From the NCBI GenBank assembly GCA_964397465.1, contig CAYNIC010000011.1, positions 3,503 to 67,502 of the forward strand: 64,000 nt of DNA, in the 5' to 3' direction. The stretch comes from an uncultured Rhodospirillales bacterium (GTDB taxonomy: Bacteria; Pseudomonadota; Alphaproteobacteria; JAWKYA01). The translations under genes and the position numbers were made by a program. Under the pieces are notes generated by a model that had not been told where the DNA came from, ran no database searches, and worked only from the letters and a program-made list of their open reading frames with translations. This document shows positions 37,320 to 53,803 of the stretch, piece after piece (positions within the stretch are counted from its first letter, which is position 1; each line of letters opens with the position of its first letter).

Positions 37320-37354
37320 GTCATGTCCTTTCGAGGGAAAACAAAGGCAAGAAA

Positions 37355-37585: not shown

Positions 37586-37594
37586 GGAACCTCC

Positions 37595-40087
37595 TTAAAA
37601 TTCGTAGCCGTTGATATCGAGCCGAAACTGAGCCGTAGTTGTGGACGACCGCCAATACACCTGCTGGGTTGTGTTCAAGATCAGACGAAACTGTCCGGCG
37701 ATCCGCCATCCATCGAAGATGGTACCGCTGGCATTCCCGGCCGCGGTGTAACAGCCGCCGGTGCCGGTGGCGTCGGCGGCAATGGCGATGGTGTCGTTGG
37801 CCGAGGCGGCGGATTGGCCGATGGTTCCGGAGACCACACCCGCGGCCGGCGGCACCGCATTGGCGATGGATTGCACCGTCCAACTGGTGATGCCGGCGAT
37901 GCCGGTAAAGATGGTTTGTGGTGCCTGAATGACGCTGCGGTCGAACTGATAAAACTTCACCAGATTTGATGCGCCGTCATTGCGCGCCGACCCGACCAAG
38001 GCCTTGTAAGTATATCCGCCGGGAAGCATCGGTGTCGTTCCCGACAAGGATATCAATCCCGCCACGGTGGAGGTCGCGGCATTGTAAATGACCCACAACC
38101 GGTACCAGGTGGCGGCGGCTTCAACGCCGCTGTCCAACCCGTTGACGCCGCTGGCGGCGATGTCGACGGTAACCGCAATGTTGCTCAGCATCATCGCGTC
38201 ACCGGCGGCGTCCTTCACCATCAGTTCATCCGCGGCGATGTCGATCTTATTGGCCGGCGACGCGGCATTGACTCCGGCTTTCAGCCGTCGCGCTTGCCCG
38301 GCAAGGGTGAGGGAATGGGTAAAACTTAAAACGCCATTACCATTGGTGCGGAGAACTTGACCGGCCAGGCCGTCGCTGCCGGGAAAAACAAGACCCTTCA
38401 GTTTGATCTTGCCGCTGCCGTTGGGTGAGAGGTCGATGTCGCCGTTCCCGGTACTGACGATTTTCTTGCCATTGACGATCAAATCCCCGCCCAGTTTTGG
38501 CGCCGGATCATCTTCGATCTTCATCAATATCCCGGGGATGCCTTGCGCGCCGGTGTCGCCTTTCATCGCCAGGACATCCCAATAGATCCCGTTGGGCGGC
38601 GTGTGATTGATATGGGCGATTTTGCAGCGATAACTGCTGCCGGCAAGGGTTGCCACATCGCCGATGACATAGGACGTTACCGCCGACCATGCGCCTTTCC
38701 AGGCCAAGGCGCCGTCATTGCCGGCAAGGCCGTCCACGGCGACCAAGGCCCATTGCGGCGTGGTTGCCGTAAGACCGATGCGGCTTGGCGTGATGCCTTG
38801 ATGATCGACGGCGGCGATATAGGTTGCGCCGCTGGCATCATGGCGGACGACATCGCCGCGTTTGTAGGATGTCGTCATTTCCCACGCGGCCATCCAAGCG
38901 AATCCAAGCTCGGTCAAGGGCAAGGGTACAACCGTAACCGACTTGCCGGTCCACACCATCCATCGTGCGGCATAGGAGGGCGACGTCAGATCAACGGGGG
39001 TGCCGCCGCCGCTGGCGTCGGTTGTTCCCGCCTGGGCGATGTCGCCGGCGGCGAAACCGCTGCCGCCCGCCAGTTGGGGATTGGCCCCGGCTTTGTTGTA
39101 AACGTATCCGTGGCTGTGGGTTGGAAGTTCCGCCAAGGTTAGACTGTGTTTCTCTTCGCCGAAACTTGCGCCCAGTTGGCGAAGAGTAAGACCGGCACCT
39201 TGTCCTGCACCGACGATGGCACGGCCGCGCAAGTCGGGAAGTTTGACTGTGTCGTGCAAAAGCCACGTCTCGCTTCCCTGGTTAGGCGGCAAGGTGCGGA
39301 GGATGGAAAACAGGTTTTCATAGGCGCCATGGGCATGATCCGCTCCGCTTGAGGCGTCGCCCAAGGTTTTGCCATCGAGCTCCAGCCATCCGTCGGGCGC
39401 CATGCCGCCAAGGAGGCCGCCGAGAAACGGATGAATGGTGCCGACCGGTATCGCCGCCGCGACCTGACTGTTAAGGGCGTTCAAGCTGGCGGTGACACCG
39501 TTTAATGCCGCGGTACTGGCGGCGCCCAAGGTGGATCGTCCCGCTGCGGGATTTCCTGCCGCCAATAATGTCTCGCCAAATCCCGACACCGCCAGGTTTC
39601 CCGGCGGGGTGGCGATAATGGCCGTGGGCCGCCCCTCCGCATCAAAGCCCAGCGCTCGCCCGGCGCGAAGCGGCGCCAAGGGCAAGGTCATATCGACGTC
39701 GCTGTCGAACGGCGCCTTGGCAAGGGCATCGCCGGTCAAAGCCTGAACCTGCTGCACGCCCAAGGTCAAACGATCCAGTTCTTCATTCACCACTGCGGCG
39801 CGAAAGGATTCGCCATCGATGAAATCGGTGGTGCGGCTGATCGGCATGGCGCGGCTGATGGTCACCCGGCATCCGGCGGGCGGCGGAATAAAAAATACCA
39901 CATCACCGCCGCTGCTATTTCCGATGCCGGTAACCGTATAGGTGTTGATCGGCGCCCATTGGTCGTTCAACGCGACCTTTAAATCATCGCCGTTCAGAAT
40001 GGGGAAGTCGTAAGCAAAGGCCGTGACGGCGCCGGTGCCCCAATGCTGAAGGCGTGGCCGGACATCGCCGATGAGAAGATCGGACAT
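37595..40087 (-). CDS. Tail fibre protein with phage tail-collar domain
   Basis: 830 aa. Collar motif ...APDGWLELDGKTL...VKLPDLRGRAIVGAG...LTLAELPTHSHG. Confidence 0.7.
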   Translation of the reverse strand: MSDLLIGDVRPRLQHWGTGAVTAFAYDFPILNGDDLKVALNDQWAPINTYTVTGIGNSSGGDVVFFIPPPAGCRVTISRAMPISRTTDFIDGESFRAAVVNEELDRLTLGVQQVQALTGDALAKAPFDSDVDMTLPLAPLRAGRALGFDAEGRPTAIIATPPGNLAVSGFGETLLAAGNPAAGRSTLGAASTAALNGVTASLNALNSQVAAAIPVGTIHPFLGGLLGGMAPDGWLELDGKTLGDASSGADHAHGAYENLFSILRTLPPNQGSETWLLHDTVKLPDLRGRAIVGAGQGAGLTLRQLGASFGEEKHSLTLAELPTHSHGYVYNKAGANPQLAGGSGFAAGDIAQAGTTDASGGGTPVDLTSPSYAARWMVWTGKSVTVVPLPLTELGFAWMAAWEMTTSYKRGDVVRHDASGATYIAAVDHQGITPSRIGLTATTPQWALVAVDGLAGNDGALAWKGAWSAVTSYVIGDVATLAGSSYRCKIAHINHTPPNGIYWDVLAMKGDTGAQGIPGILMKIEDDPAPKLGGDLIVNGKKIVSTGNGDIDLSPNGSGKIKLKGLVFPGSDGLAGQVLRTNGNGVLSFTHSLTLAGQARRLKAGVNAASPANKIDIAADELMVKDAAGDAMMLSNIAVTVDIAASGVNGLDSGVEAAATWYRLWVIYNAATSTVAGLISLSGTTPMLPGGYTYKALVGSARNDGASNLVKFYQFDRSVIQAPQTIFTGIAGITSWTVQSIANAVPPAAGVVSGTIGQSAASANDTIAIAADATGTGGCYTAAGNASGTIFDGWRIAGQFRLILNTTQQVYWRSSTTTAQFRLDINGYEF

Positions 40088-40111
40088 GAGAGTGTCTCCT
40101 TATAGAGGCGC

Positions 40112-40603
40112 TTAACGGATCAGGGATATTTGCTGAATGGCGTAGTGGGTTCCGGTGTCCAGCAGGCTGCGGCCGATGGCGTTCGCCGGCGACAAGCGAC
40201 GCTCGCGGTCCAAAATCTTGGCGCGCTGCTGCGTTTGGGCGATTGCGGCGCCGTTGTCGGCGAGGTCAGCATCCCGTTTGGCCAAGGCTTGTTCCGTCGC
40301 GTCGGCATGACGCGATTGCATCGCCTGTTGCAAGGCCGCCGTACTGCCGCCGTCATCATTGATGCCGCGCGCCGCCGCACTGGTGCGGGCGCCGCCCAAC
40401 TCGCGGCGTAACCCAAGGCGCCGGGTCGCTTGATCGGTCTCGAAGTTGTCGGCGATCAGCGAGCGTCGCCGCTGCAAGGACGCCAGTTGCTGCTGGGCAG
40501 CGAGGCTTTGCGCTTTCGCTTCGGCCCGGCGGGCGGGAAGATTCAGCGCCGTTTGGGCTGCTGTGGCGGCAAGCTGTGGAAGTAACGGGGTTGACGCGGC
40601 CAT
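40112..40603 (-). CDS. Ala/Gln-rich coiled-coil virion protein (hypothetical)
   Basis: 163 aa of low-complexity helical sequence. Start/stop junction shared with the upstream gene. Confidence 0.45.
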   Translation of the reverse strand: MAASTPLLPQLAATAAQTALNLPARRAEAKAQSLAAQQQLASLQRRRSLIADNFETDQATRRLGLRRELGGARTSAAARGINDDGGSTAALQQAMQSRHADATEQALAKRDADLADNGAAIAQTQQRAKILDRERRLSPANAIGRSLLDTGTHYAIQQISLIR

Positions 40604-42501
40604 CAGTCATTCACCTTAAGTTCGCAGTTGACGGAAAGAAGCGTGAAGGAAAAAGGATTGCTTTGGGTAATGCGCCACAGCGGTTCCAGCGCGCCGCGAT
40701 GCCAGCCCAAGGCCCGCACCGTGACATCGCCGGTATAGGCCGCCGGCGGTGAGTCAAGATTGACGCCGCCGATCGTCTGCAACGGAACCAATCTTGGTCC
40801 GCGGCCCACATCAACCATCAAGGCGGGGGTGTCTTTGATGCGGAAGGTGGCGCGGATCAGCCGCAAGGGCTCACCCTGAAGTTCTCCGTTGTCCGACGGC
40901 GGCAGGGGCTCGATGCTGTGGGTAAAGGCAAGACCTACTTCGATGCGGGTGGCGGTGGCGGCCAGAGAAATCACCCCGCCTTTGACCTTATAAAGGCCGA
41001 GCGGCCGGCCATCGGCGATGACCGTCACCCATTTGTCGTTGAGATGGGACAGCCCGCCCCAAATCGATTGGGCTTGTTCGGTTTCGCCCAACAAGGCGGC
41101 ATCACTGTTAAGTTGCGGATCAAATTTTTCGATCCGAAAATCGGCAAAACGTTTGGCCAAGGCATAGACGTCGCCGCCCACCACGGCGACGGCATGAAAC
41201 TCGCCGTCGGTTTCCAACCGCGTCCAGGCGGTGACATTCTCCGAGCGATAAAGGGTAAGGGCGCCGAGGCCGCCGTCGCTCATCACCACGTAAAGCACCC
41301 GCGACTTATCGGCGTAATCCATGTCGATCGGATCCGTCACCAGATGCGGAGCCAGCACCGAGAGGTCGCGGGCTTGGTAAGCCGCCTCGGCATCGGTATA
41401 AAGAAGTTCGCGAATTTGCCGGCCGCTGCGCGCGGCAAACAGGGTTGCGCCTTCAACCGCGCGGGGTGGTACGGTGCGATCAGGGTGTGAGCCGACGGTG
41501 GTTTGCCGTTTCGCCTGGACCGTGGCGGGAGATAACGGCTCGCCGGTGATCTGCCACTCGCCGCCGGTGGTCAAAACAAACAGCGTCAGACCGGAATGCA
41601 TCCCGCGAATGGCGTCGACCTGTTCCGACAACAATCCGAACTCGATCGCATCGTCATCCTCGCCGATGCCAAGATCAAAGTTGAACAGATCCGAAGTCCG
41701 CGACATCCAGATCCGGTTGGGGATCGACCGGGCGCCGCCGAACACCAACCGGTCTTGGGCGAAGGCGACGCTGGCGGGCCAGCCGCGATAGGGTGAAAAC
41801 GCCTGCTCGGACCAATCGGTGATGGCGGTGGTGTTGGGCAAGGACAGGGCCAGCGTCACCTTCACCGCCGTTGCCGAGGTGACCTCGATGATGGCGACAT
41901 CCTGGTTGGGCAGGCGTAAGTATGCGCCCAGCTGCGCCGGATCAAACACCGGTGCCGATGCGGTCAAGGTAATGGTGCCAGAGGTGCCGCTGGGCGTTAA
42001 GGTCACGGTATCTCCGGCGAAACGATAGAACGGATGATAGCGGCGTTTGGTTGTCGTATTGGCGACAAAGGTTAGATCCGCCAAAACCCAGGTTTGCGGC
42101 CCTAGACGGGTGAGGGTCTTTGGCGCAACATCGGGATGACAAATAAACAACGTGTCCGCACTTTGCGCCCAAGTCAGACGCTTGATCTGATCCGCCGTCC
42201 ACGGCGTGGCCACGGTGGCGATGACCGCATCATGGTGCAGGATGGTGATCTGCTGATGGGTGACGACCAACAGATAAGTCTGCTCGGCATTAAAGGCGAA
42301 ACCGATCAGACGGCCGGAGCCCGCGGCGATGGCGATATGACGCAGGCCAGGCCGGCGCGTCACGCCTCCGGTCGGCTGCACCAAAATATTGCGCAGTTTT
42401 TTTGCGGCGTTGCTGTACGACGCAAGATCGCCCCGGCCGTAAAGATCGCTCGATACTTCGCCGGCGGTGAAATTATTTTTGAGAACCCGCATGCGTCCCA
42501 T
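40603..42501 (-). CDS. Large tail/nozzle protein (T7 gp12 tubular-B position)
   Basis: ATG at 42501 after GGAGGAGG; 632 aa. Assigned by size and synteny only. Confidence 0.5.
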   Translation of the reverse strand: MGRMRVLKNNFTAGEVSSDLYGRGDLASYSNAAKKLRNILVQPTGGVTRRPGLRHIAIAAGSGRLIGFAFNAEQTYLLVVTHQQITILHHDAVIATVATPWTADQIKRLTWAQSADTLFICHPDVAPKTLTRLGPQTWVLADLTFVANTTTKRRYHPFYRFAGDTVTLTPSGTSGTITLTASAPVFDPAQLGAYLRLPNQDVAIIEVTSATAVKVTLALSLPNTTAITDWSEQAFSPYRGWPASVAFAQDRLVFGGARSIPNRIWMSRTSDLFNFDLGIGEDDDAIEFGLLSEQVDAIRGMHSGLTLFVLTTGGEWQITGEPLSPATVQAKRQTTVGSHPDRTVPPRAVEGATLFAARSGRQIRELLYTDAEAAYQARDLSVLAPHLVTDPIDMDYADKSRVLYVVMSDGGLGALTLYRSENVTAWTRLETDGEFHAVAVVGGDVYALAKRFADFRIEKFDPQLNSDAALLGETEQAQSIWGGLSHLNDKWVTVIADGRPLGLYKVKGGVISLAATATRIEVGLAFTHSIEPLPPSDNGELQGEPLRLIRATFRIKDTPALMVDVGRGPRLVPLQTIGGVNLDSPPAAYTGDVTVRALGWHRGALEPLWRITQSNPFSFTLLSVNCELKVND

Positions 42502-42502
42502 C

Positions 42503-43069
42503 TCAGCCTCCTCCAGTCCAGCCGGTAAGATCAAATCCGCCGGCGGTTTCTTCCTGGGCGTCGATCAGACGGGCGCGGCGAAATTCTTCCTCGGCGGCAC
42601 GGGCCAAGGCTTCGGCCCGGGATGAATTCTCGGTCAAAGGAATGCAGAACTCGGCCGCCAGGCGCGCGATCAGCACATGATCAAAGAACGGCGGAAAATC
42701 CGCTTCGCCGGGGCGAAAAATATAGGTCAGGATCACTTCATCGGCGTGGGCGTGAAGCCGCCGCTCGGCGATGCGGTAGGTAAGCCCGCGCCCGCGACGG
42801 CCGTTACCGGCGGAAAGGGCGCGAAGATAATCGCCGGGCAATTGAAACGCATAGGCATAGTCGGCGGGGGGCGAGGCCGCCAAGGGCGCAAGCCGCCGTT
42901 GCGCCGTGGCGAAATTCCACGGATGGGCGGAGAGCAGGGCGTCCCGCGTCGACGGATAAAGCAGGCTGGCCACCTCGGCGGCAGCGGAGCCTTCGTCAAA
43001 TCCTAAAATAGGCGCGGCGCCGATTTTCACCAGCGCTCGGGCACAAAGTTGAATGGCGCTCAGAGCCAT
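42503..43069 (-). CDS. Adaptor / tail tubular-A-position protein
   Basis: ATG at 43069; 188 aa. N-terminus MALSAIQLCARALVKIGAAPI...HPWNFA resembles podovirus adaptor-type proteins. Synteny supports the call. Confidence 0.45.
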   Translation of the reverse strand: MALSAIQLCARALVKIGAAPILGFDEGSAAAEVASLLYPSTRDALLSAHPWNFATAQRRLAPLAASPPADYAYAFQLPGDYLRALSAGNGRRGRGLTYRIAERRLHAHADEVILTYIFRPGEADFPPFFDHVLIARLAAEFCIPLTENSSRAEALARAAEEEFRRARLIDAQEETAGGFDLTGWTGGG

Positions 43070-43152
43070 GGCTCGTTGCCTTTCCCATAAAAAAGCTCCG
43101 CGGCGATGAACCATCGCCGGCGGAGCCGATCACAACAGAGAAAATAGATTTA

Positions 43153-43410
43153 TTAGTCGGTGTTCACGCTGCCGACGGCGGTCATGTCGGCGACATCGAC
43201 CGTGCCGTTCTGGCTGGAAGCGATCAGAAGAATGCCGGCGCCGCCGTTGACATTGGCGAGAATCATATCGCCTTTGCGCAGCATATCTACGGCGGGATTA
43301 AAATAGCCGTTGGTATCGACGATGTCGGCGGTATCGGTCGAGGCATAATGCCAAAGGGTAAAGCCGTTGGCATAGGCCAGCACCGAAAGGTTTCTGGCAA
43401 GATAGGCCAT
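43153..43410 (-). CDS. Small capsid-associated hypothetical protein
   Basis: 85 aa, directly downstream of the capsid gene. Confidence 0.45.
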   Translation of the reverse strand: MAYLARNLSVLAYANGFTLWHYASTDTADIVDTNGYFNPAVDMLRKGDMILANVNGGAGILLIASSQNGTVDVADMTAVGSVNTD

Positions 43411-43448
43411 GAAGATCTCCTTTATCTCTTTAAGCTAAGGGTGAAATT

Positions 43449-44273
43449 TTACGCTTCGCTGCACGGCAGGGTGACAAGACCGGTGCCATCGACCAGCACC
43501 GCGCCCAAGGACAGCGAGCAGCTGACGAACCACGCGGCCCGATCGTTGTGATAGGCGATGTCGGTGTTGACTTCCGATCCCACCGCGAGGGCAAGGGCGG
43601 TCTTGTGCCACCAATGGCACAGGCGGTGACCATTGCCGTCGAGGCCAAGGCCGGAATGGGGCATCCACAAGGTTCCCAGCCAGCGCTTGGCCTGGGTGCC
43701 GCGCCAGGGCAGATCGTCGCTGCCGACATAATCGGCATTGGCGAATTCCTGGATCATCAAGAGATCGGACCATTGTTTCCATCCCACCACGGCGTAACGA
43801 TCTCCGTCATCGGGCACATCGTTGCCGCCCAGGATGCCGAAGGCCTCCAGCACCTTTTGTTTGGTGAGACCGCCGCTAACCGTCGGAGTCAGATTGGCCG
43901 AGGTGTTCATCTGCGCCAAAATCAGCTCGTCGGTTTTGCGGCCCAAGGCATAGGCGCCGGCATTGGCCACCACCGCCCGCTCTTCGTTCTCGGTCTTAAG
44001 TTCGTCCAGGGCGTCCACCCATTCGCCGGCATAGTAATCCGACAGAAAACATTCGATCGGCGCGTGATCGATGTTCATCACCGGCACCTTGCCGTGTCGC
44101 GCTTTGGTCGAAGCGCTGCCCTTGCCGACTTTTTGAAACACGGTGGAGGCGCCTTTAACGCTGCCCTTGGCGCGAACGCAAGGGCGGAGCTTGGCGCCCG
44201 TACGCTGATAGGCTTCGTGAACTTCCTTTTCGAACTGCTTGATGAAAGCAGCATCAATGGAGGGTTTATTCAT
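43449..44273 (-). CDS. Major capsid protein (putative)
   Basis: 274 aa, positioned after the scaffold-like gene. N-terminal FIKQFEKEVHEAYQ... pattern resembles small podovirus coat proteins. Confidence 0.65.
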   Translation of the reverse strand: MNKPSIDAAFIKQFEKEVHEAYQRTGAKLRPCVRAKGSVKGASTVFQKVGKGSASTKARHGKVPVMNIDHAPIECFLSDYYAGEWVDALDELKTENEERAVVANAGAYALGRKTDELILAQMNTSANLTPTVSGGLTKQKVLEAFGILGGNDVPDDGDRYAVVGWKQWSDLLMIQEFANADYVGSDDLPWRGTQAKRWLGTLWMPHSGLGLDGNGHRLCHWWHKTALALAVGSEVNTDIAYHNDRAAWFVSCSLSLGAVLVDGTGLVTLPCSEA

Positions 44274-44394
44274 GGTGATCCTTTCAGAAAAAATAAACGG
44301 TTGAGTCCGGCCACGGGTTATCCGCGCAGGGGCGGGCTTGCAGCCGGATGAAGGAAAAAGACGGGCCGCCGCAACGGTTGTCCGTAATTAAGAC

Positions 44395-45132
44395 TTATGA
44401 ACTGGGGTAAAGACGGCGGAAGCCCTCGCTGACCTCGGCCACAAAGGCGGGGTCTTTGTGCTTCCAATAGCGGGGATCGCGCATCATCTTGGTCAGATCC
44501 TCTTCGGTTAAACTTGCAACCGCGGTGCCGCCACCGCCAAGCCGCGGCGGCGATCCGCTTTGCATCATGGCGTGAAGCGCCAGAACGCCGTCGCTGGTCG
44601 AGGCCAAGGCGTCGAACACGTCGCGCGGCAGGTGGGCCGTGCCCCAGGCGTTGAGTTGCCGGGCGATTTCGCGCCATGCCGTATCGCCGCCGAAATGGGC
44701 GATCAGTCGCTCGCGCTGTTTTTGCGCCTCGAATTCCGACGCCAGATCGGTGATCGCCGGCAGCATGCGTTCGCCGGCGAGATCGTAAACCAGCTGAGCT
44801 TGGCGCGGCGTGAAGTGGGCCGCGTGCAGGCGACCGTTGACATCCGGATCAATGTCCAGAAAATCGGTGCTAAGATTGATCTCGTAAGCATCGGGTGTGT
44901 CGGGGATACCGAGCGCCCGGCGGAAGGCTGCGGTCTCCGTCTCGTCGGCATCATCTCGCGGCACCCGCACCATGGTCGATAGTTTTCGCTCCAGCTCCAA
45001 ATAGGATCGCGCCAGTTTCGCCACATCGGGCGCGCCGGTTTGCGGGTCCAAAAATTTCTGGGGAATTTGCACCGTGTCGGATGAAGGGGCGGCGGGCGTA
45101 TCCGATGGTGTGGTCAGTAAACTCTCGGTCAT
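44395..45132 (-). CDS. Scaffolding-like protein
   Basis: ORF trimmed to the ATG at 45132 after AAGGA, 5 nt below the portal stop. 246 aa, helical and acidic. Sits between the portal and capsid genes. Confidence 0.5.
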   Translation of the reverse strand: MTESLLTTPSDTPAAPSSDTVQIPQKFLDPQTGAPDVAKLARSYLELERKLSTMVRVPRDDADETETAAFRRALGIPDTPDAYEINLSTDFLDIDPDVNGRLHAAHFTPRQAQLVYDLAGERMLPAITDLASEFEAQKQRERLIAHFGGDTAWREIARQLNAWGTAHLPRDVFDALASTSDGVLALHAMMQSGSPPRLGGGGTAVASLTEEDLTKMMRDPRYWKHKDPAFVAEVSEGFRRLYPSS

Positions 45133-45136
45133 GGCA

Positions 45137-46669
45137 TTATCCTTTTGTCGACGAAAGGGTTTGCGCCTCAACAGAGGCAGGTAAAATTTCAGAAGAAATC
45201 GCTGCTGGAACATCGGGACGTAACAGGCTCGCCGGCAGGTCCAGCATCTTGGCGGCCCATCTGGCGGCGGCCGGCGCATCCAAGGTCGCGGCGGCGTCCG
45301 GCCCCAACTGCTTGGCGATGTCCAGCCACGACAAGGCGCCTTGCGCCTCCAACTGGGCTTGCCGCCGCGCCAAGGGCGATCGGTATTGCAAGGTGATGGT
45401 GCGACCATCCAAGGTCAGGTTCGGCAATTCGCCGCGCCGGGATAAAATCGCCAAGGCCCGCGCCACCAACGGCGTCAAAAGTTCGGCCTGCAGCCGGCCG
45501 TAGGTTGCGCCCAATAACCGCGCGGTCTCCGCCGCCCGGTGCAGAACTTCGGTTGCGGTCATGCCCGGCGTCGCCACACTTGCCAGGCGGTCGGTCAGCA
45601 GACTGGAGCGGATCGCTTGCCGTAGGGTGGCAAGAGTCAAATCCGAGACATTGAAATTTCCCGGCACCTGCAAGGGCGTCAGGCCCGATGAGCCGACCGC
45701 CTTGGGAATGATGGTGCCCGGCACCAACCTCACCGTCGCCGGATTTAAAACACCGTCGTCATCGGCCTGCCAAATGCCGGTGACGGCGATGGCGGCGTTT
45801 TTCAGCGTCAACTCAACCACCTTGTTGGCGGTTTTGATATCGGGCAATGCCTTCATCACCGGCGAGCGGCCATAGGCCTCGCCCGGCGCTTTCATCCAGC
45901 GAAACGACAAAAAGGGCGATTGATCCAATCGCGCCTTGGCCAAAAGATGCGGGCCGTTGAATTTCTCCGCACCGCCTTCCAACACCGCGACGTAATCGTA
46001 ACCGTTGCCGGTCTCGCGGGGGACCACCGCTTCGATCACCGTGTAAAGACGATCGCTGTCGGTTGCGGCGGAAGCGGGAATCTCCGCTGCGGGAAAGCGG
46101 CTGTGCAGTTGCAGCCGGCTCAACCGATTGCGACGATAGGCGATATCCAACCTTCCCTCGGCGCCTTCCTCCAACACCACATCCCACAACGGCACGGCGG
46201 CAAAGCGAAAGGCGCTGGGTTGTCCCGGGGCGGTTTCTTCAAAGGACAAACAAGCCGTGCCCGACACCACCAAATCCAGAAAGCATTGATGAATCTCCAC
46301 CGCAAAATTCGAGCGATCGAAATGCTGCTGCAGAATCTCGGCGGCGCGATCGAGTTTCGGCGCCAGGTCGCCGTGCAGGTGTTCGGGAATTTCCCGGCCG
46401 GGGGCAAAGCCGAACCATCTGGCCCAGGGCGGCGTCAGTTCAGCCAGCAAACTGGCCGCCAATTGATCCACCGCATCGGGGGCGGTGCCGTCGAACAACC
46501 GCTCGCGGCTGGCGGCGGATAGACTGGAGGGCCCCGCTCCGGCAAAGGGCGTCTCATCCCGCGACGGCAAACTGTAGGCATAGCAGTCGCGCCACACCGA
46601 CTCCCAGGCGCTGCGCTGCATCTTGGCGCGGTGAAACCGGGCCATCACGCTTTCCGGCGTCATGATCAC
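45137..46669 (-). CDS. Portal (head-to-tail connector) protein
   Basis: 510 aa. N-terminal RFHRAKMQRSAWESVWRDCYAYSLP resembles the T7-type connector family. Position is upstream of the scaffold and capsid genes. Confidence 0.7.
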   Translation of the reverse strand: MIMTPESVMARFHRAKMQRSAWESVWRDCYAYSLPSRDETPFAGAGPSSLSAASRERLFDGTAPDAVDQLAASLLAELTPPWARWFGFAPGREIPEHLHGDLAPKLDRAAEILQQHFDRSNFAVEIHQCFLDLVVSGTACLSFEETAPGQPSAFRFAAVPLWDVVLEEGAEGRLDIAYRRNRLSRLQLHSRFPAAEIPASAATDSDRLYTVIEAVVPRETGNGYDYVAVLEGGAEKFNGPHLLAKARLDQSPFLSFRWMKAPGEAYGRSPVMKALPDIKTANKVVELTLKNAAIAVTGIWQADDDGVLNPATVRLVPGTIIPKAVGSSGLTPLQVPGNFNVSDLTLATLRQAIRSSLLTDRLASVATPGMTATEVLHRAAETARLLGATYGRLQAELLTPLVARALAILSRRGELPNLTLDGRTITLQYRSPLARRQAQLEAQGALSWLDIAKQLGPDAAATLDAPAAARWAAKMLDLPASLLRPDVPAAISSEILPASVEAQTLSSTKG

Positions 46670-46884
46670 TCTCCCAATAAAATTTTGCGGGCGGGGATAA
46701 GGCGCGCCGATTTGCCGGCGGTAATGGCAGGCTGCTCCAGCACGCCGGTCAGTCCGGTTTTGACGGTGGTGGCAAGGCCGCGGCGAATCCGGCGGTGCGG
46801 GTGAAGATCTTCCTTCACCGCGGCGGATAGGGGCGGCGGTGCCGGAACCGGCGGTGGGGTGGGGGCGATAAAGCGGCTGGCCAT
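46666..46884 (-). CDS. Hypothetical Pro-rich 72-aa protein
   Basis: ATG at 46884 after GGGAGA. ATGA overlap with the portal start. Confidence 0.35.
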   Translation of the reverse strand: MASRFIAPTPPPVPAPPPLSAAVKEDLHPHRRIRRGLATTVKTGLTGVLEQPAITAGKSARLIPARKILLGE

Positions 46885-46993
46885 CAAGGATCTCCCTGAA
46901 GCAGGTGGAACGAACGGGACAAAGGGTGGAAAAAACAAAACCCGCCGCGGTTTCCCGGGGCGGGTGAGAAGAGGCGGAGTCATGGCCTCATGT

Positions 46994-47008
46994 GTTCCTA
47001 TATAGTTC
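46994..47008. promoter_or_regulatory. Alphaproteobacterial-type SOS (LexA) box GTTC-N7-GTTC
   Basis: GTTC ctatata GTTC read directly. Overlaps the -10 of the promoter listed next. Confidence 0.65.
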
Positions 47009-47027
47009 TCTTTTCAGTTCCTGTCAA
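46999..47027 (-). promoter_or_regulatory. Near-consensus sigma70-type promoter for the portal-to-holin genes
   Basis: The minus strand reads TTGACA (47027-47022), 17 nt, TATATA (47004-46999). Confidence 0.6.
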
Positions 47028-47109
47028 CGGTATTTTTTCTTAAAAAATGAAAAAGAAGCTGGCCGCCTGTGGGCAAGGTTTCCTTCCGGCTGAATCCCCA
47101 GCGTCTATT

Positions 47110-47562
47110 TCAAGAACGGCTTACCCGACCCGCGGGATTTAAAAGACGTCCCGCGTTCCTGTCCGTCAGGGATAAAAATAACCGCCATGGGGTCCAAATA
47201 AATCGGCGCCGCAGGTGCAAAATATTTTTTACCACGGCAACGCAGGTCATCGGCCGCAGCAGGTTAAGACAAGATCGATGGCGCCGCGGGGTGCGGGTCA
47301 TCGGCATCATCACGGGAATCGGCACCGCACCCTTTGCGGTATAGAATCGAATCATCTCCGCAACGGAGTAGGGAGGAAGGAGTTTGATCATCAGACGGCC
47401 GCACAGGGGATCCACCATGATCCATCCGCTGGCGATTCGATAAAGGATAAAGCAATGGCGGAAGCCTCGTTTCAACAGATAAAACCATGGAAATTCCAGC
47501 TCGCCGCGAAATACCACGATCGCCGTAACCCCGCGGCGCGGACGATCAGAGTCGGCGGTCAT
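47110..47562 (-). CDS. Hypothetical 150-aa protein
   Basis: The 244-aa track ORF is trimmed to the ATG at 47562, which overlaps the upstream stop (ATGA). No family recognised. Confidence 0.45.
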   Translation of the reverse strand: MTADSDRPRRGVTAIVVFRGELEFPWFYLLKRGFRHCFILYRIASGWIMVDPLCGRLMIKLLPPYSVAEMIRFYTAKGAVPIPVMMPMTRTPRRHRSCLNLLRPMTCVAVVKNILHLRRRFIWTPWRLFLSLTDRNAGRLLNPAGRVSRS

Positions 47563-47924
47563 CGGACGATTCCCTTGGCCCGCAGCGGCGGCGTCAAACG
47601 CTCTAACGCTTCGCGCCACAGCTTGGCGAAGTTCGCCTCTTCGCCCCGGGCATAGGGCGACGGAGCGCGGCCCATGCGGCCGTAGTGCATCAGGATTTTG
47701 ACATGAGCCCGGCGCAGGCGCCGTCGCTCGACCAGCCGCACCAGCTCGCGCACCACGTCGTCGGGCTCGCAGGGTTTGGGGGTGGATTTTCCCGCCTCGA
47801 ACCGGGCGCCGTCGGCGCGGGCGGTCAGGCAGGCGACGCACCAAAACCAGCAGGCTAAACTCGTCGGGAAAGGCTCCCCAATCGTTGTTCCCTTGCCGGT
47901 GGTGATAAGCTTCAACTGGCCCAT
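47559..47924 (-). CDS. Hypothetical 121-aa protein, first gene of the cluster (possible regulator)
   Basis: ATG at 47924 after AAGGGAG. Arg-rich helical C-terminal half. Confidence 0.45.
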   Translation of the reverse strand: MGQLKLITTGKGTTIGEPFPTSLACWFWCVACLTARADGARFEAGKSTPKPCEPDDVVRELVRLVERRRLRRAHVKILMHYGRMGRAPSPYARGEEANFAKLWREALERLTPPLRAKGIVR

Positions 47925-47969
47925 GGCTTTGCTCCCTTGAAGGGCTTTTTTCTCTCGCGGTAAACGAGT

Positions 47970-47984
47970 GTTCTATTATTGTTC
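47970..47984. promoter_or_regulatory. Second SOS (LexA) box GTTC-N7-GTTC in the divergent control region
   Basis: GTTC tattatt GTTC read directly. Confidence 0.6.
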
Positions 47985-48084
47985 GCTATTAGAGGGAGAG
48001 TCTATATGCACAAATACCCATGTCAAGCCTGAATCAGAATTTGATCCTAGTGACATTTTTCACCTGAATTGTGAAGGTGTTCCC

Positions 48085-48717
48085 ATGTTGAGACATGCGG
48101 ATATATGGCGGGGGATTGACCGTTTGGCTGCGACACATAATTTGTCGCCCTCGGGCTTGGCTCGAAAGTCAGGATTGGATCCCACCACCTTTAACAAATC
48201 AAAACGGGTTGCCCGGGATGGCAAGCCGCGTTGGCCGACGACGGAAAGCCTGGCGAAGATTCTGTCGGCCACCGGCGCCGGCATGAACGAATTCGTCTCA
48301 TTGATGAGCGAGACTCCCGGCACCTCGGTAACCCAGCGGATCCCGGTCATCGGCTATACCCAAGCGGGTCAGGCCGGTTACTTCGACGACGCCGGTTATC
48401 CCGCGGGCAAGGGCTGGGACGAGGTGGAGTTCCCCGATGTCGGCGATCCTCACGTTTATGCGCTGGAGATCAACGGCGACAGCATGATGCCGGTTTATCG
48501 CGACGGCGACGTGGTTGTGGTCTCGCCCCAGGCGCAGATCCGCCGCAACGACCGGGTGGTGCTGAAGACCGTCGAGGGCGAGGTGATGGCCAAGGTGCTC
48601 AGCCGCCGGTCGGCCAAGAAGATCGATCTGCATTCGCTCAACACCGATTTCCCCGATCGCAGCCTGGACAGCGACGACGTGCTGTGGATCGCGCGGATTA
48701 TCTGGGCCAGCCAATAG
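48085..48717 (+). CDS. HTH + S24 peptidase (CI/LexA-like self-cleaving) repressor
   Basis: ORF trimmed to the ATG at 48085 after GAAGGTG. N-terminal HTH (LSPSGLARKSGLDPTTFNKSKR), an Ala-Gly linker, and GDSMMP...K catalytic dyad. Confidence 0.8.
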   Translation: MLRHADIWRGIDRLAATHNLSPSGLARKSGLDPTTFNKSKRVARDGKPRWPTTESLAKILSATGAGMNEFVSLMSETPGTSVTQRIPVIGYTQAGQAGYFDDAGYPAGKGWDEVEFPDVGDPHVYALEINGDSMMPVYRDGDVVVVSPQAQIRRNDRVVLKTVEGEVMAKVLSRRSAKKIDLHSLNTDFPDRSLDSDDVLWIARIIWASQ

Positions 48718-49829: not shown

Positions 49830-50627
49830 ATGCCTTACGTACAGCGAGATAAAAAAGGAATTGTAACAGGGTTATTTGAACATAAATTACCAGAGGCTAC
49901 TATGGAATTTCTGGAAAAAGACGATCCGGAAATTAAAGACTTTTATGATCGATTTCCACTATCGCCTCAGATGATAGAGGCGCTTCGCCCTAAATCTACA
50001 AAAGAGTTACTCGAACAGCATCAAAAAATTGAAAAAGAATATAATCAACTTATAGAAGACCATAAAGCACTTCAAAATCTCATTATATCTTTATTAGGTG
50101 TATGGGCGGAAATGGAGACTAGCTTTGCTGGCTTACTAAATGTTCTTTTAACAGGAAGTAGAGAAAAATTGGCGTTTGCACTTTACTTTTCTATTCGAAA
50201 TTTTCAAACGCAAATGACGGTAATTCAAACACTTGGTGAAGTGCTTTTTCCTTCCGAAGAAAATTCAAAAAAAGTGTATAAAGAATGGGAGTCAGTTTTT
50301 AATAAAATTAAAAAGGAAGTACCTGAAATTCGAAACAGAATCGCTCACGGGCATATAGTCCAGTTCTTGCACGAGAAGAAACATATACGTGTTTTGCCGC
50401 CATTTTTTGATTTCATTAAAATAGAAAAAAGCAACGCAAAAGCTGAATTACCTGGAGTTGGACAAAACGAAATATACAAAAGTATAAAGGTAATAGGCCT
50501 AACTTCTCAGTTTGCCAATCGCTTGTCGCTTATTTTTAAGCGTTCTTTTGAAGGCGAGGCATTAGCACTTAAAGAAATTGATTTGGAGCTCAAAAGTTAT
50601 AAGGAAAATTTCAAAAATTTAAGATAA
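49830..50627 (+). CDS. Hypothetical protein with HEPN-like Rx4H motif
   Basis: 265 aa, strongly AT-rich and all-helical. The motif EIRNRIAHG sits at the end of a helical-bundle-like region. Start lies 17 nt after the ilvE-like stop, with RBS GAGGGAG. Confidence 0.5.
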   Translation: MPYVQRDKKGIVTGLFEHKLPEATMEFLEKDDPEIKDFYDRFPLSPQMIEALRPKSTKELLEQHQKIEKEYNQLIEDHKALQNLIISLLGVWAEMETSFAGLLNVLLTGSREKLAFALYFSIRNFQTQMTVIQTLGEVLFPSEENSKKVYKEWESVFNKIKKEVPEIRNRIAHGHIVQFLHEKKHIRVLPPFFDFIKIEKSNAKAELPGVGQNEIYKSIKVIGLTSQFANRLSLIFKRSFEGEALALKEIDLELKSYKENFKNLR

Positions 50628-50765
50628 CAGATGATATAAACATCAGCACCGCCATACGTCGTGTCAATGTCCTGAGATCGACTATCCGCCGGTGCCCTTC
50701 AGCAATAAACCCTTTGCCAGCCTCAGCCCGCTTAAGTAGCATTGCGCGGAAGGGATTTTCGTCTC

Positions 50766-51779
50766 ATGACGCTAAATTATCTCGAACTGATTATCGGCAG
50801 TCTGTGCTTAATCATCATCGGCTTCTGCGCCGGTGTTGTTATCCATGCCGGCGAGATCATTCCCTATCAGCCGCTGATCGTCGGTTTGATCGCGCTGGGC
50901 GGCGCGGTGATCGCCTATGTCGGAACGCTGAGGGCATCCCACGCCCATCTGCAGGTCGCCGAGAAGAACATCAAGCATCAGCAAGAGCAGAAGGCGCTGG
51001 ACTCTATCAACGAGAAACAGGAAATCGCGTCCTTTGCGCAAAAGCTGCTGCTGGAAATATTCAATTATCTGGTGGCGACAAGCCTTCTTTCCCGGGACCA
51101 GGCCATCGATGAAAAATGGCTCAACCTCTTGACCCTGAAAGACATGATAGAGCGATATGTCACCAGGATGGAGGACGCCTCGGATAAATTCATGAAACTG
51201 GACATTAACAACTCCAGCCGAATTCATCTGATCATTCGCGGCTTGAAAAACATCCTGCCCGAGGCGGAGACGATCCAAAATATAAATCAGCTGATGAAAA
51301 CCGGCGACAATGGCGCGATCTGCGCCCAGTATATCAACCGCACCTATGAATATATCGGGACATTCTTGAACGAGAACGTTACGGTACATGACATCCTTAA
51401 CGACTTGGATGTCATCTCCAAGGGCAATGTGGATCAATCAAGGGCGTATTCGATCTTGACGACGGATCTGAGAAAAATCATCAACGAGAATCTGAGGCTT
51501 ATTCAATCCGCCGTCACCGCGGGCCGCTATCTCGAGATCGATTATCCGCCGGGGCGCCGGGTGGTGGCGCCGCATATTTTGGGGCGCACCAGCAGTGGCG
51601 AGCTGGTGCTCAGCGTCTATCAAGTCAACGGCGCCAGTGATGCTGGCGAGACGGTGGGGTGGAAGACTTTCCATCTCGATCGCATTTTGGGCGTAAGGGT
51701 GTTGGATAAACGCTTTTCACCGCAGGGCGATTACAATCCCCACGATCCGAAAATACCCGAAGTTATCGTCAAGGTATAA
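50766..51779 (+). CDS. Two-TM membrane protein with C-terminal WYL-like domain
   Basis: ATG at 50766. TM helices LELIIGSLCLIIIGFCAGVVI and PLIVGLIALGGAVIAYVGTL. C-terminus YLEIDYPPGRRVVAPHILGR...LVLSVYQ...WKTFHLDRILGVRVLDKRF fits the WYL pattern. Confidence 0.55.
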   Translation: MTLNYLELIIGSLCLIIIGFCAGVVIHAGEIIPYQPLIVGLIALGGAVIAYVGTLRASHAHLQVAEKNIKHQQEQKALDSINEKQEIASFAQKLLLEIFNYLVATSLLSRDQAIDEKWLNLLTLKDMIERYVTRMEDASDKFMKLDINNSSRIHLIIRGLKNILPEAETIQNINQLMKTGDNGAICAQYINRTYEYIGTFLNENVTVHDILNDLDVISKGNVDQSRAYSILTTDLRKIINENLRLIQSAVTAGRYLEIDYPPGRRVVAPHILGRTSSGELVLSVYQVNGASDAGETVGWKTFHLDRILGVRVLDKRFSPQGDYNPHDPKIPEVIVKV

Positions 51780-51803
51780 GCGCCGCAGCGCGCCTGTTGC
51801 AGG

Positions 51804-51875
51804 TGCGGATCACTGATCAACAGTTTTCATCGCAGCTAAAGGACCATCTACGCGATGTGATTGTCACTCCCATCA
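51804..51875. repeat. Direct repeat R1 (~72 bp)
   Basis: Hand alignment with 53176-53246 gives about 56 of 72 identical with one gap. The best block is TGCGGAT.ACTG.TCAACAGTTTT. Confidence 0.75.
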
Positions 51876-51903
51876 GCTCTGCAAATAGGTCTATACGGTT
51901 CAA

Positions 51904-52623
51904 TTAATTTGTCGTTTGAAAGCCACGAATCGCCCAGAGTATTGACCATCCAAATATAAAGATAATCGTTGGGGGAATGATAAACATACCCAGGATAAAT
52001 AATAAACTTTTGTCAGCTATAGATCGATATTCTTTGGCATGGTTTTTTGCGGCATCAATTTTGTCTAACCGGCTTACTTTAGATTTGTAGATTTCTGCAG
52101 GGTTACGGCCGCAAGGAAGATCTATGATCTGTCTTGATTTTTCTGCCAGATTCTTATTCAGAATATTTCTAGCATCTTGAATAGATAATGACCTAAAATC
52201 AACAATAGTAACCCAAGCTTCTCGTTTAAAAGCTTCCACTATAGCTTCCAGCTGTTCATCAGATAATTTTTCAAAGTCAAACTTAGTTTGGGATGACGGA
52301 TTTTGTTTCTCCGTTTGTCGTTCTGGTGGGGGAAAATTTGATTCTTGTATTTGATTAAGATCTATCCAGCCGTTCTCCATAAAATAGAAGATAGGCTCAG
52401 TGCGGCATTTAGTTCTATAATACTTTCCTACTTCCGGTTCAGGCAGAGAGTCTGTCTCTGATTGTAGAAAAGATATTTCGCGATCTGCTTCTGCAGAACG
52501 CCTTATATTATTAGTATATTCCGATTTCAATTCGGTTAATACCAGCCAAGCTACCAGCGAAACCCATATTGCACTAATTATCAGCCATAAACGAAAAAGC
52601 CCTCTTCCAAATCTAGACATCAT
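51904..52623 (-). CDS. Hypothetical membrane protein with N- and C-terminal TM helices
   Basis: 239 aa, AT-rich. Third gene of a translationally coupled trio. Confidence 0.5.
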   Translation of the reverse strand: MMSRFGRGLFRLWLIISAIWVSLVAWLVLTELKSEYTNNIRRSAEADREISFLQSETDSLPEPEVGKYYRTKCRTEPIFYFMENGWIDLNQIQESNFPPPERQTEKQNPSSQTKFDFEKLSDEQLEAIVEAFKREAWVTIVDFRSLSIQDARNILNKNLAEKSRQIIDLPCGRNPAEIYKSKVSRLDKIDAAKNHAKEYRSIADKSLLFILGMFIIPPTIIFIFGWSILWAIRGFQTTN

Positions 52624-52813
52624 ACTTTAGGCACTCTTCTGCAGAAGCAACTTCAGATTTTAATTTTGAATAATCTATATTTTCACCCCAAGGTTTATCG
52701 TCTCGAGCGTTCTTTAAGGCGTCGCTGCAAAGATCTTTATTGCTCAAATTCGTAAATGGATATGAATAGAATTTTGGTGGGTAGTCTGGAATAGTAACTT
52801 TCACACATTTCAT
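52613..52813 (-). CDS. Hypothetical 66-aa protein
   Basis: Overlaps both neighbours (ATGA with the upstream gene, 11 nt with the downstream gene). Confidence 0.4.
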   Translation of the reverse strand: MKCVKVTIPDYPPKFYSYPFTNLSNKDLCSDALKNARDDKPWGENIDYSKLKSEVASAEECLKYDV

Positions 52814-53046
52814 TGTTTGATCTTTCCATTATTTTTTATAATTTGGTTGGGATCGAATCCCTCCGCCACAAGAAGTGAGCTAAGTTGTTCACCAAAACTT
52901 TTACTGTCTTCATATGCGAAGAGAGGCTTTTGAGTCTTATCAGATACAGATATATAAACGCGCCCTTGACCCGCATGCTCAAAATCAAAGTTGTAGCCAA
53001 GGTCATGGAGCGCAATGAGCATTCTGGCGTTGTTTGTATTGCTCAT
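52810..53046 (-). CDS. Hypothetical 78-aa protein
   Basis: First gene of the trio. Preceded by a very AT-rich ~125-bp leader/promoter region. Confidence 0.45.
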   Translation of the reverse strand: MSNTNNARMLIALHDLGYNFDFEHAGQGRVYISVSDKTQKPLFAYEDSKSFGEQLSSLLVAEGFDPNQIIKNNGKIKQ

Positions 53047-53175
53047 TAGGTTATGCTTCCCTTTTATTTCTATTTAAAAGGGTATCATTAAATATATATA
53101 ATTTTAAATAGTTTTAAAAACACCTGACTTTTCAGTATCTTCTGCCTAGAAATCATTTTTAGCGCATTGTGTGGT

Positions 53176-53246
53176 TGCGGATAACTGGTCAACAGTTTTT
53201 ACCGAAATTGAAAGCCATCCGCGCGAAGTGACGGTCGCTCCCATCA
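53176..53246. repeat. Direct repeat R2 (~71 bp)
   Basis: See R1. Confidence 0.75.
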
Positions 53247-53284
53247 CTGCGCGGATTTAACCGGCGTCTCAGGTCAACCCGGCG

Positions 53285-53494
53285 CTAACACGTCGCGTAG
53301 GTCGGGCTTTGCGCCGCCTCAAACACAAACATCACTTCCGACGGAATAATGTCATGGGGCAACTGGCCCTTTTCCTGTGCTGCTTTCAACACAAGATCCT
53401 TCACATCGCGTCGCATCGTGCTGTTGAGGGTTTGAAAACCGCCGACCCCATAAGGGCCAACTGTTTTTCCGTGGTATTTGATAAATACGTTCAT
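53285..53494 (-). CDS. Hypothetical 69-aa protein (the open frame continues upstream to 53755)
   Basis: The ATG at 53494 has a strong RBS, GGGAGGGAG. The 156-aa track ORF adds a basic, AT-rich N-terminal extension of doubtful coding status. Confidence 0.4.
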   Translation of the reverse strand: MNVFIKYHGKTVGPYGVGGFQTLNSTMRRDVKDLVLKAAQEKGQLPHDIIPSEVMFVFEAAQSPTYATC

Positions 53495-53803
53495 CGTAAC
53501 TCCCTCCCGCAGTAAACGGTTGTCCCCGTTTCCCGGTATTTTTTTAAGTGCAGTTACTTTTTTTCTAGGCCATATCGCGCGTTTAAGGGCGCCTCGGCCG
53601 TATGATATCCGATCTAGAATACGCAGCATTATAGGCACTGCATGATCGGGTCCACAAGCAAAGATCGTAAGCTCATGATTACGTTGAGCAATAAAAATAG
53701 TCGGGCGACGTTTTATTAACCAATTATTTTTTCTGAAGAAAAATAGCGTGGCCATACGCTAATTTTAGCGACGTAAATACCTCGGAAATACTTGGTTTTT
53801 ACG

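Follow-up and report, generated by a model that had tools for sequence, protein, structure and literature searches.

A putative LexA operator at a late promoter in a domesticated, T7-like particle cluster of Rhodospirillales

A direct repeat of the alphaproteobacterial LexA type encloses the -10 of a promoter that serves a T7-like particle gene cluster in an uncultured Rhodospirillales bacterium. It is fairly probable that this repeat is an operator for the host LexA, lying over the late -10 of a domesticated cluster, and that it takes part in the switch mechanism proposed below. The best-supported model is a multi-layer damage switch composed of LexA-type boxes, a self-cleaving repressor (Rep) and a read-through step that would depend on an early protein, p121. 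The 64-kb stretch of DNA that was analysed is called the window throughout, and related loci in other genomes carry L numbers.

The late promoter and its direct repeat

The late promoter lies in a gap (46885–47109) that extends from the stop codon of p150 (47110) to the ATG of p72 (46884). On the minus strand its core reads TTGACA (47027–47022), 17 nt (GGAACTGAAAAGAGAAC) and TATATA (47004–46999), exactly as an earlier note on this DNA had described it. Directly upstream of the -35 is an A/T-rich tract, TTTTAAGAAAAAATACCG (47028–47045, minus strand), which resembles an UP element. The window has a single match to the pattern TTGACA-N17-TATAWW, for which 100 shuffles gave an expectation of 0.00. 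A simple promoter scan of the window did not list the late promoter, because its rule demands that the sixth base of the -10 be T, and in TATATA this base is A. If the -10 is instead taken to be CTATAT, with a spacer of 16 nt (TTGAC-N17-CTATAT), it agrees with the rule for position 6, and this reading is said to match the rhizobial sigma-70 consensus that MacLellan described in 2006. The related locus L085 has TATATG at the late -10, so that CTATAT is preserved. The sequence TTAAgaaaaaaTACC upstream of the late -35 was considered as a CtrA box and rejected, as there are two mismatches in its second half and relatives simply have A-tracts at this place.

The -10 is enclosed by GAAC-tatatag-GAAC (46994–47008, minus strand), a candidate LexA operator. 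In direct reading the plus strand is GTTCctatataGTTC, a GTTC direct repeat with the exact 7-nt spacing that defines the alphaproteobacterial SOS box, and the match that the earlier note had placed over the -10 is exact. The position of the box, around the -10, falls inside the range of roughly -35 to +20 relative to the promoter. A third GAAC (plus-strand GTTC, 47017–47020) reads GGAAC on the minus strand right after the -35, is separated from the middle repeat by 8 nt, and stands in the context TAGGAACA. The GTTC at 47005–47008 is preceded by A and not T on the plus strand (minus-strand GAACT, versus GAACA in the family); this half-site deviates from the extended family consensus TGTTC, which the second box of the window (47970–47984) fits.

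By itself, the number of GTTC-N7-GTTC matches in the window is at chance level: two are observed and 1.83 expected, in agreement with the figure of about two per 64 kb given at the outset. The second match, at 47970–47984, has the same orientation as the first and lies 1 kb away from it, and the two boxes occupy the two regulatory gaps of one and the same element. These gaps make up about 385 bp of the 64 kb, and a rough estimate of the chance that both boxes fall there is about 4e-5. Neither this second box, nor the third GAAC, nor the intrinsic terminator at 46930–46964 had appeared in the earlier note.

The particle gene cluster and its carriers

The late promoter serves a T7-like set of structural, packaging and lysis genes on the minus strand (33725–46669). 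Their products include a portal of the T7 type (PF12236, 5e-122), a scaffold, the capsid, tail tubular proteins A and B, a fibre and the large terminase, along with a SleB-like hydrolase and small membrane proteins. The first late gene, p72 (46666–46884, minus strand), encodes a small, proline-rich protein and has a GGGAG ribosome-binding site ahead of it; homologues of p72 in relatives start with MGGFF... and are likewise located upstream of the portal gene. The element measures about 15 kb and holds head, tail and lysis genes. It has no gene for replication, integration or the establishment of lysogeny, several of its small ORFs being without annotation, and no tRNA gene is found near it. 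Housekeeping genes are present on both flanks.

Homologues of the portal at about 60% identity number in the thousands. Among GTDB species representatives there are 562 portal matches, essentially all of them in Rhodospirillales, and Azospirillum is among the carriers. Carriers with complete genomes include Azospirillum sp. A26 (CP170472), Defluviicoccus vanus (CP053923), Caenispirillum salinarum (CP085224) and Magnetospirillum sp. ME-1. From these 562 genome matches 80 loci were read, and the 67 that are fully syntenic were used for motif counts. Wherever the contig extends far enough, most of the 80 loci keep the gene order Rep, p121, p150, (p72), portal, and the same branched-chain aminotransferase gene often adjoins Rep. 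The closest true phages show a portal identity of at most 36%. The conserved neighbourhood and gene order across Rhodospirillales, together with this distance to the nearest phages, mark the element as a particle cluster that has been domesticated and passed on vertically, and make it a candidate gene transfer agent (GTA).

Conservation of the box in close relatives

The close relatives of the window's element (L081/L096, L083/L084/L099, L085 and L095; portal identity 85–92%) represent five to six independent sequences. A block reaching from the A-tract through the T-run of the terminator is nearly invariant among them; the gap upstream of this block has diverged, as has the stretch from the terminator to the ribosome-binding site. 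None of the three GAACs varies, and changes are confined to the spacers (TGAAAAG, TAAAATT, TCAAAAG), the box at 46994–47008 being unchanged in L081, L083, L085, L095 and L099. The early box at 47970–47984 and its 3' flank are invariant in the close relatives as well. A metagenome scan with an 18-mer of the leader recovered three further members of the window's clade, all with the same promoter. These comparisons support selection on the box at 46994–47008 within the window's clade, with the qualification that the invariance of the 70-nt block partly reflects promoter constraints, since the close relatives are few and similar.

The arrangement with three GAACs is restricted to the window's clade. 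In L113, the closest outgroup, the early promoter carries an exact box and the late promoter is bare, and outside the window's clade generally the box is common in the early region and rare at the late -10. Because L113 is without a box at its late promoter, the LexA-type box on the late -10 is a recent innovation of the window's small clade.

The possibility that the box is functionless has to be weighed here. It would then be a chance match, conserved through the constraints on a strong promoter among a few close sequences. The count of two per 64 kb, the identity of the middle 7 nt with the -10 itself, the small number of close relatives and the lack of positional conservation beyond the clade all agree with such a reading. 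We regard it as very improbable, however, in view of the placement of both matches in the two regulatory gaps of the element, and of the GAACs beside the -10 and after the -35, which are not promoter elements and are invariant while the spacers vary. The strong enrichment of the motif across the family, described below, also argues against it.

The early region

The second exact box lies between p121 and the divergently oriented rep gene (47970–47984; GAACaataataGAAC in minus-strand reading, also quoted as GTTCtattattGTTC) and is the only other exact GTTC-N7-GTTC in the window. It is placed about 15 nt downstream of the -10 of the early promoter (TTGACA-16 nt-TAGACT; 47999–48026, minus strand), which drives p121 and p150. 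A conserved TTGAC stands at a fixed distance from the start codon of Rep. Further upstream, at 48034–48049 (minus strand), there is a degenerate palindrome, TAGGATCAAATTCTGA, the family form of which is TAGGAA-N4-TTCCTA and which is a putative Rep operator; no copy of the palindrome with one mismatch or fewer is found in the regulatory region of the window.

The first early gene, p121 (47559–47924, minus strand), encodes a candidate antiterminator of the Q21/AlpA type, discussed below. The second, p150 (47110–47562, minus strand), is conserved and present in every related locus that reaches far enough upstream of the portal. Its product contains the motifs GFRHC and CVE.VKR.LG..TPW, has no match in Pfam, NCBIfam or among phage proteins, and gave a poor single-sequence structure model. 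Rep itself (48085–48717, plus strand) is a repressor with a helix-turn-helix (HTH) and an S24 peptidase domain, of the CI/LexA-like self-cleaving type. The peptidase domain is clear (Pfam Peptidase_S24, 4e-23) and the PHROG assignment is transcriptional repressor, and there is a weak match to HTH_26 (E 0.003, below the Pfam cut-off). In most syntenic relatives Rep is 58–69% identical.

Two operator types across the family

Motif enrichment was determined for the 67 syntenic loci relative to 1.08 Mb of flanking background, which contains 0.0148 exact direct repeats per kb. The exact N7 direct repeat is present in the early region of 23 loci (0.2 expected), in the flank 3' of rep in seven (0.2 expected) and in the late region of four (0.4 expected), and is enriched more than 100-fold in the regulatory regions of related elements. 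In the 23 of 67 relatives with an early-region box, this lies just downstream of the early -10, in either orientation. Of 62 late regions, 14 contain the relaxed form GAACA-N6-GA[AT]C, versus 0.27 expected. All except one of these 14 sites share one orientation and a position 258–342 nt upstream of the portal start, which in the loci read precedes the start of p72 by a few tens of nt.

The second motif is the palindrome TAGG-N8-CCTA. In 1.42 Mb it has 15 exact copies, and for 13 of these a portal gene follows within 2.2 kb downstream. Its spacing variants are rare in the same 1.42 Mb (two copies with N7, none with N9), and its ideal form is TAGGAA-N4-TTCCTA. It is found at three places: one surrounds the late -10, another precedes the early -35, and the third is the flank 3' of rep. 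Repressors of the HTH-S24 class act as dimers on inverted repeats. The palindrome is probably bound by the element's own Rep: it is assigned to this protein and not to p121 because it suits a dimeric HTH-S24 repressor and because it also occurs in Tagaea loci that have no p121.

Around the late -10, L002, L003, L015, L038 and L044 carry TAGG-N8-CCTA (in L002 the sequence is cTAGG-TATATAG-TCCTA), and the window's clade carries GAAC-TATATAG-GAAC. The same exchange of operator types is seen in the flank 3' of rep. In none of the 67 loci does any one of the three regions hold both motif types as exact copies. Lineages differ in which of the two operator types they carry at equivalent positions.

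The protein that binds the direct repeat

GTTC-N7-GTTC is the LexA operator of Alphaproteobacteria (PMC4951493, PMC9578287), and has been described as extremely well conserved across the class (PMC4951493, PMC9578287, PMC3323433). This part of the earlier note is borne out by the literature (PMC4951493) and by the lexA promoters of Sinorhizobium and Mesorhizobium (GAACacatatgGAAC), Caulobacter (GAACgcctagaGAAC) and Cereibacter. The Cereibacter promoter has a triple repeat, GGAAC-N7-GAAC-N7-GAAC, similar to that of the window, and the extension to GAACA/TGTTC is common to the sites of the family and the lexA-promoter controls. From this agreement we infer that the direct repeat is bound by LexA. 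The operator of the host LexA is assumed from class-level literature and from controls belonging to other orders, and may not be the Rhodospirillales motif; the literature searched holds no LexA motif specific to Rhodospirillales.

A set of reduced cassettes from Acetobacteraceae (L108–L111) bears on the same point. All structural genes have been lost from them, neither Rep nor p150 nor a portal is found within 3 kb, and GTTCgtcttatGTTC is retained directly ahead of p121. Since the box is kept there without Rep and p150, the binding protein is probably encoded elsewhere in the genome. Searches for lexA and other SOS genes gave the following picture. With an approximate, Caulobacter-like LexA query (97% identical to the LexA of C. 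segnis), tblastn against plasmids returned only Rhizobiales, Rhodobacterales, Sphingomonadales and Gram-positive sequences, and the proteins listed by a LexA profile search of the protein collection came solely from Rhizobiales and Caulobacter. When LexA, RecA, SSB and RuvB were searched by tblastn against the collected loci and the window, only the control loci L087 and L088 matched. On the JGI contig Ga0172278_1319 (623 kb) there is no SOS gene in the 10 kb past one end of the window, nor between the other end of the window and the end of the contig.

An alternative is that another protein of the element, Rep or p150, binds the repeats, the likeness to a LexA box being a coincidence or mimicry and the element having no LexA wiring. 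Rep is always adjacent in complete elements, p150 recurs in every related locus that reaches far enough upstream of the portal, and the left half-site of the putative Rep operator is often TAGGAAC, which contains GAAC and may be compared with the third repeat of the window. These points are outweighed by several others. Palindrome and direct repeat are separate motifs, separately enriched and never both exact in one region; the dimers formed by HTH-S24 proteins are established to take inverted repeats; the box survives in the cassettes that have neither protein; and the GAACA half-site is constant even where Rep is only 37–47% identical. Binding by Rep or p150 is thus distinctly unlikely, and LexA is retained as the candidate in what follows.

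The late leader, the terminator and p121

The late transcript would begin with a conserved leader (46965–46993, minus strand; ACACATGAGGCCATGACTCCGCCTC...), related to the family motif CAACgCCAcAgnTGCGcCC, of which the window version is GGCCATGACTCCGCC. The sequence after TATATA and ahead of the hairpin is GGAACACATGAGGCCATGACTCCGCCTC. The leader motif is present in 22 of 71 late regions versus about 0.9 expected, and the leader may be where an antiterminator is recognised or the polymerase pauses for it. Reading the window's leader by eye showed no pause-like hexamer (A at position 2, T at position 6), and Rfam has no family for the leader or for anything else in the window. A small hairpin in the leader (a 3-bp CGC/GCG stem) was dismissed, as the G-to-A changes in it are uncompensated.

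The leader runs into an intrinsic terminator (46930–46964, minus strand), located between the late promoter and p72 and consisting of the hairpin CCCGCCCCGGGAAACCGCGGCGGG (46941–46964) followed by the T-run TTTTGTTTTTT (46930–46940); folding gives a canonical hairpin and U-run. The sequence following the hairpin, TTTTGTTTTTTT..., is read as TTTTGTTTTTT at 46940–46930. The same layout recurs in more than 20 lineages: A-tract, ccTTGAC(A/T), 17-nt spacer, -10, leader motif, then hairpin and T-run. A-tracts are found at this place even in distant relatives. The hairpins are GC-rich and occupy the same place in many lineages, with differing sequences, and the late spacers show no motif common to the family. 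The idea that this hairpin does no more than terminate the early operon lying upstream is contradicted by the promoter, which is upstream of the hairpin in every lineage, and by the reduced cassette L108, where this order is retained.

The best structural match of p121 is 21Q and its second-best is AlpA. Foldseek searches against PDB and BFVD and a sequence profile search against PDB gave nothing significant, and p121 has no sequence similarity to 21Q. Its assignment as a Q21/AlpA-type antiterminator is accordingly made with moderate confidence, because neither Foldseek nor the sequence profiles returned a significant match; it is supported by patterns of joint loss and retention. Tagaea loci without p121 are also missing the late promoter and the leader, and the reduced cassette L108 has kept p121, the late promoter, the leader motif and the terminator ahead of its remaining small genes. 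The gene for p121 and its putative promoter-terminator target are inherited together.

The same relationship gives rise to the main rival of the LexA reading, namely that the GAAC repeats are a loading site (a Q-binding element) for p121, which would bind while RNA polymerase pauses near the start and then ride with it through the terminator. It is the main rival because 21Q uses two direct repeats between -35 and -10 (PMC6606751). The AlpA element GGGACG is also located between -35 and -10 (PMC9371919), as are two of the window's repeats, and both the structural matches of p121 and the terminator downstream of the late promoter would suit such a site. The distribution of the repeat points the other way. 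In more than 23 lineages the N7 repeat is at the early promoter (+1 to +20), and the late promoters of these lineages are without GAAC repeats (e.g. L002, L113); other lineages have a palindromic repressor operator around the late -10, and a family-wide motif is missing from the late spacers. The repeat spacing of 11–12 bp differs from the 8 bp of 21Q, and the motif is identical to the LexA consensus of the whole class. That p121 loads at these repeats is for these reasons unlikely, and the preferred reading remains a LexA operator.

Proposed mechanism and significance

In an undamaged cell, LexA would occupy the late GAAC-N7-GAAC, aided by the third GAAC next to the -35, and also the other box, which closely follows the early promoter. 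Rep would be a second lock, acting mainly in the early region. Upon DNA damage, active RecA would lead to the self-cleavage of both LexA and Rep. The early promoter would then produce p121 and p150 and the late promoter would fire, its transcript reaching the intrinsic terminator some 50 nt downstream. p121 would be required to take RNA polymerase through this terminator and into the portal-to-lysis genes.

The earlier note had regarded the site as the promoter of the portal-to-holin genes, under the direct control of LexA rather than only through a phage cascade. What holds is that there is a real late promoter, which is family-wide, and that its box appears to be under selection. Direct repression by LexA turns out to be too simple, given the terminator, p121, Rep and the early box, and control through a late box would apply to a small clade, as L113 is without one.

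A wider reading is more tentative, and in its full form we consider it possible though on balance doubtful: a vertically inherited T7-like GTA found throughout Rhodospirillales, wired to the SOS response by LexA boxes, by Rep and its palindrome and by a Q21/AlpA-like antiterminator, with interchangeable LexA and Rep operators. If the GTA reading is true, the element would be the first agent of this kind to descend from a podovirus. If LexA sits on the late promoter, the production of DNA-carrying particles would be directly coupled to DNA damage, and this coupling would span soil and water bacteria (Azospirillum, Magnetospirillum, Defluviicoccus and relatives in the Acetobacteraceae), with a bearing on horizontal gene transfer and stress-related cell lysis. 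According to a passage in PMC3899980 (citing Boyer 2008), Azospirillum releases mitomycin-C-induced particles with about 10 kb of random host DNA, which are attributed there to RcGTA-like genes. The T7-like element, with its proposed SOS control, is present in Azospirillum and might be an alternative candidate source of these particles. The family also represents a natural experiment, in which the operators of two SOS-sensitive repressors have been swapped at equivalent promoter positions, and in which the Q-like antiterminator module outlasts the loss of structural genes.

Comparison with known systems

The use of LexA by mobile elements is already known (CTXphi, 186, GIL01; PMC9437464, PMC3323433), as is late control of the Q type. 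Nothing in the literature searched describes this T7-like element that spans the order, its boxes of the LexA type, the exchange between operator types or the Q-like module.

In CTXphi of Vibrio cholerae, LexA and RstR hold the promoters of rstA and rstR (summarised in PMC3323433, PMC9437464). The likeness lies in the joint action of the host LexA and the element's own repressor, and in CTXphi the cleavage of LexA is needed for induction; CTXphi differs in being filamentous, in having the palindromic LexA box of Gammaproteobacteria, and in having no terminator/antiterminator step. To our knowledge, RstR is not a self-cleaving protein of the S24 type.

The alpR-alpA-alpBCDE system of Pseudomonas aeruginosa runs from a self-cleaving repressor to a Q-like antiterminator and on to a promoter, a terminator and lysis genes (PMC9371919, PMC7969949). 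The layout proposed here is parallel to it, and the reduced cassette L108 is nearly identical to it in arrangement. Direct binding of LexA has not been reported in alp, however, which also has no capsid, tail or terminase genes, and for AlpA a GGGACG element and a CACGAT pause sequence have been defined. The lambdoid Q-PR'-tR' systems (21Q type) similarly place a strong late promoter and a proximal terminator before lysis and morphogenesis genes, with the gene of the factor encoded upstream of the late promoter, as that of the candidate factor p121 is here. The late promoter here differs in also carrying a repressor operator, of either the LexA type or the palindrome; we know of no repressor operator at lambda PR'.

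LexA boxes in antirepressor or lytic promoters tie coliphage 186 (tum), the Bacillus phage GIL01 and SPC32H-type phages to the SOS response (PMC9437464). These are replicating phages with palindromic boxes of the gamma or Firmicutes type, in contrast to the alphaproteobacterial direct repeat in what appears to be a non-replicating, vertically inherited element.

RcGTA and CcGTA resemble the element in several ways: they are head-tail gene clusters in the chromosome, lack replication functions, are passed on with the host and are under the control of host regulators, as is proposed for the element. GTAs of the RcGTA type are siphovirus-like and have an HK97-type capsid. They differ from the present element in being governed by CtrA, GafA or RogA, and in R. 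capsulatus LexA acts on the GTA indirectly. Clusters of this type carry a prohead protease gene (PMC3899980), and CcGTA is controlled by activation plus anti-termination (bioRxiv 10.1101/2023.11.12.565669). The element described here is set apart from these agents by its T7-like make-up (PF12236 portal, T7 scaffold, tail tubular A/B) and by the combination of an S24 repressor with direct LexA-type boxes.

Operators and promoters

Besides the LexA-type direct repeat on the late -10 (GTTC-N7-GTTC, 46994-47008), which the earlier note had flagged, the 64-kb window holds only one further exact copy, at 47970-47984, which that note does not mention. It lies between the gene for p121, a candidate Q21/AlpA-type antiterminator, and that for the S24 repressor (Rep), just 3' of the divergent early promoter (48026-47999, TTGACA-16-TAGACT).

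In the early regions of Azospirillum group B (L058, L072, L077, L079, L080), GAACatgtGTTC stands beside a half direct repeat; it is a perfect GAAC-N4-GTTC palindrome, the type of LexA box found in Gram-positive bacteria. Near L016 7729-7995, and at the equivalent place in L024, L027, L036, L042, L047 and L055, the Magnetospirillum group has an exact GAAC-N7-GAAC just past the 3' end of rep; other lineages have the TAGG-N8-CCTA palindrome there. A small ORF of 88 aa begins just past the repeat in L016, and the window has no equivalent small ORF 3' of rep.

The TAGG-N8-CCTA palindrome (TAGGAA-N4-TTCCTA) is nearly confined to the regulatory regions of the T7-like element family, with copies in L002 (9565), L003 (4402), L015 (5868), L025 (9117), L044 (6918) and others, and a degenerate one in the window at 48034-48049. 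It probably serves as operator for the HTH-S24 repressor that the element encodes. Where some lineages carry the LexA-type direct repeat, others have this palindrome in its stead at the corresponding position.

Late leader and p150

On the minus strand, a conserved leader with an intrinsic terminator (46930-46993) separates the late promoter from p72, the first late gene. The leader has no matching Rfam family, and a related leader motif, CAACgCCAcAgnTGCGcCC, is present in 22 of 71 relatives. In the Magnetospirillum and Phaeospirillum group, GAACAAAACATGATC is conserved a few tens of nucleotides 5' of the p72 start codon, some 300-340 nt ahead of the portal gene (L016, L021, L030, L032, L036, L040, L047, L052 and others), and downstream of the terminator wherever a terminator was found. 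One possibility is a LexA box in which a single base has changed; another is a pause or -10-like element (CATGAT, CACGAT).

The second early gene, p150 (47110-47562, minus strand), is present in all related loci that reach far enough 5' of the portal gene. Its product has the invariant motifs GFRHC and CVE.VKR.LG..TPW; searches gave no family match and no phage homologue, and the structure model was unusable.

Islands and insertions

Two low-GC islands lie near the element. The first (32-34 kb, GC 0.45) directly adjoins its lysis end and includes a gene (32386-33750, minus strand) whose 454-aa product has a RelA/SpoT nucleotidyltransferase domain and could act as a small-alarmone-synthetase toxin or in defence. 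The second (49830-53755, GC 0.42-0.45) has four ORFs with no Pfam match and is flanked by an aminotransferase gene beside Rep on one side and a glyoxalase and helicase pair on the other. In several marine lineages (L007, L018, L020, L057), 3-5.7 kb of inserted DNA separates the portal gene from p150 or from the late promoter.

Relation to known systems

PMC3899980, citing Boyer 2008, reports that Azospirillum strains induced with mitomycin C release particles that contain random host DNA of about 10 kb. The putatively SOS-wired T7-like cluster (window 33725-48717) also occurs in Azospirillum genomes, and clusters of this type are a candidate source of those particles.

A reduced cassette, with pyrD and a HAD hydrolase gene as neighbours, is found in Acetobacteraceae metagenome contigs (L108-L111, about 2950-4800). 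In it a LexA-type box and a p121 homologue are combined with the late promoter, leader motif and terminator, accompanied by three or four small genes; the repressor, p150 and the structural genes are absent. Cassettes of this type are widespread (136 blocks of the searched collection), and their layout is similar to that of alpA-alpBCDE.
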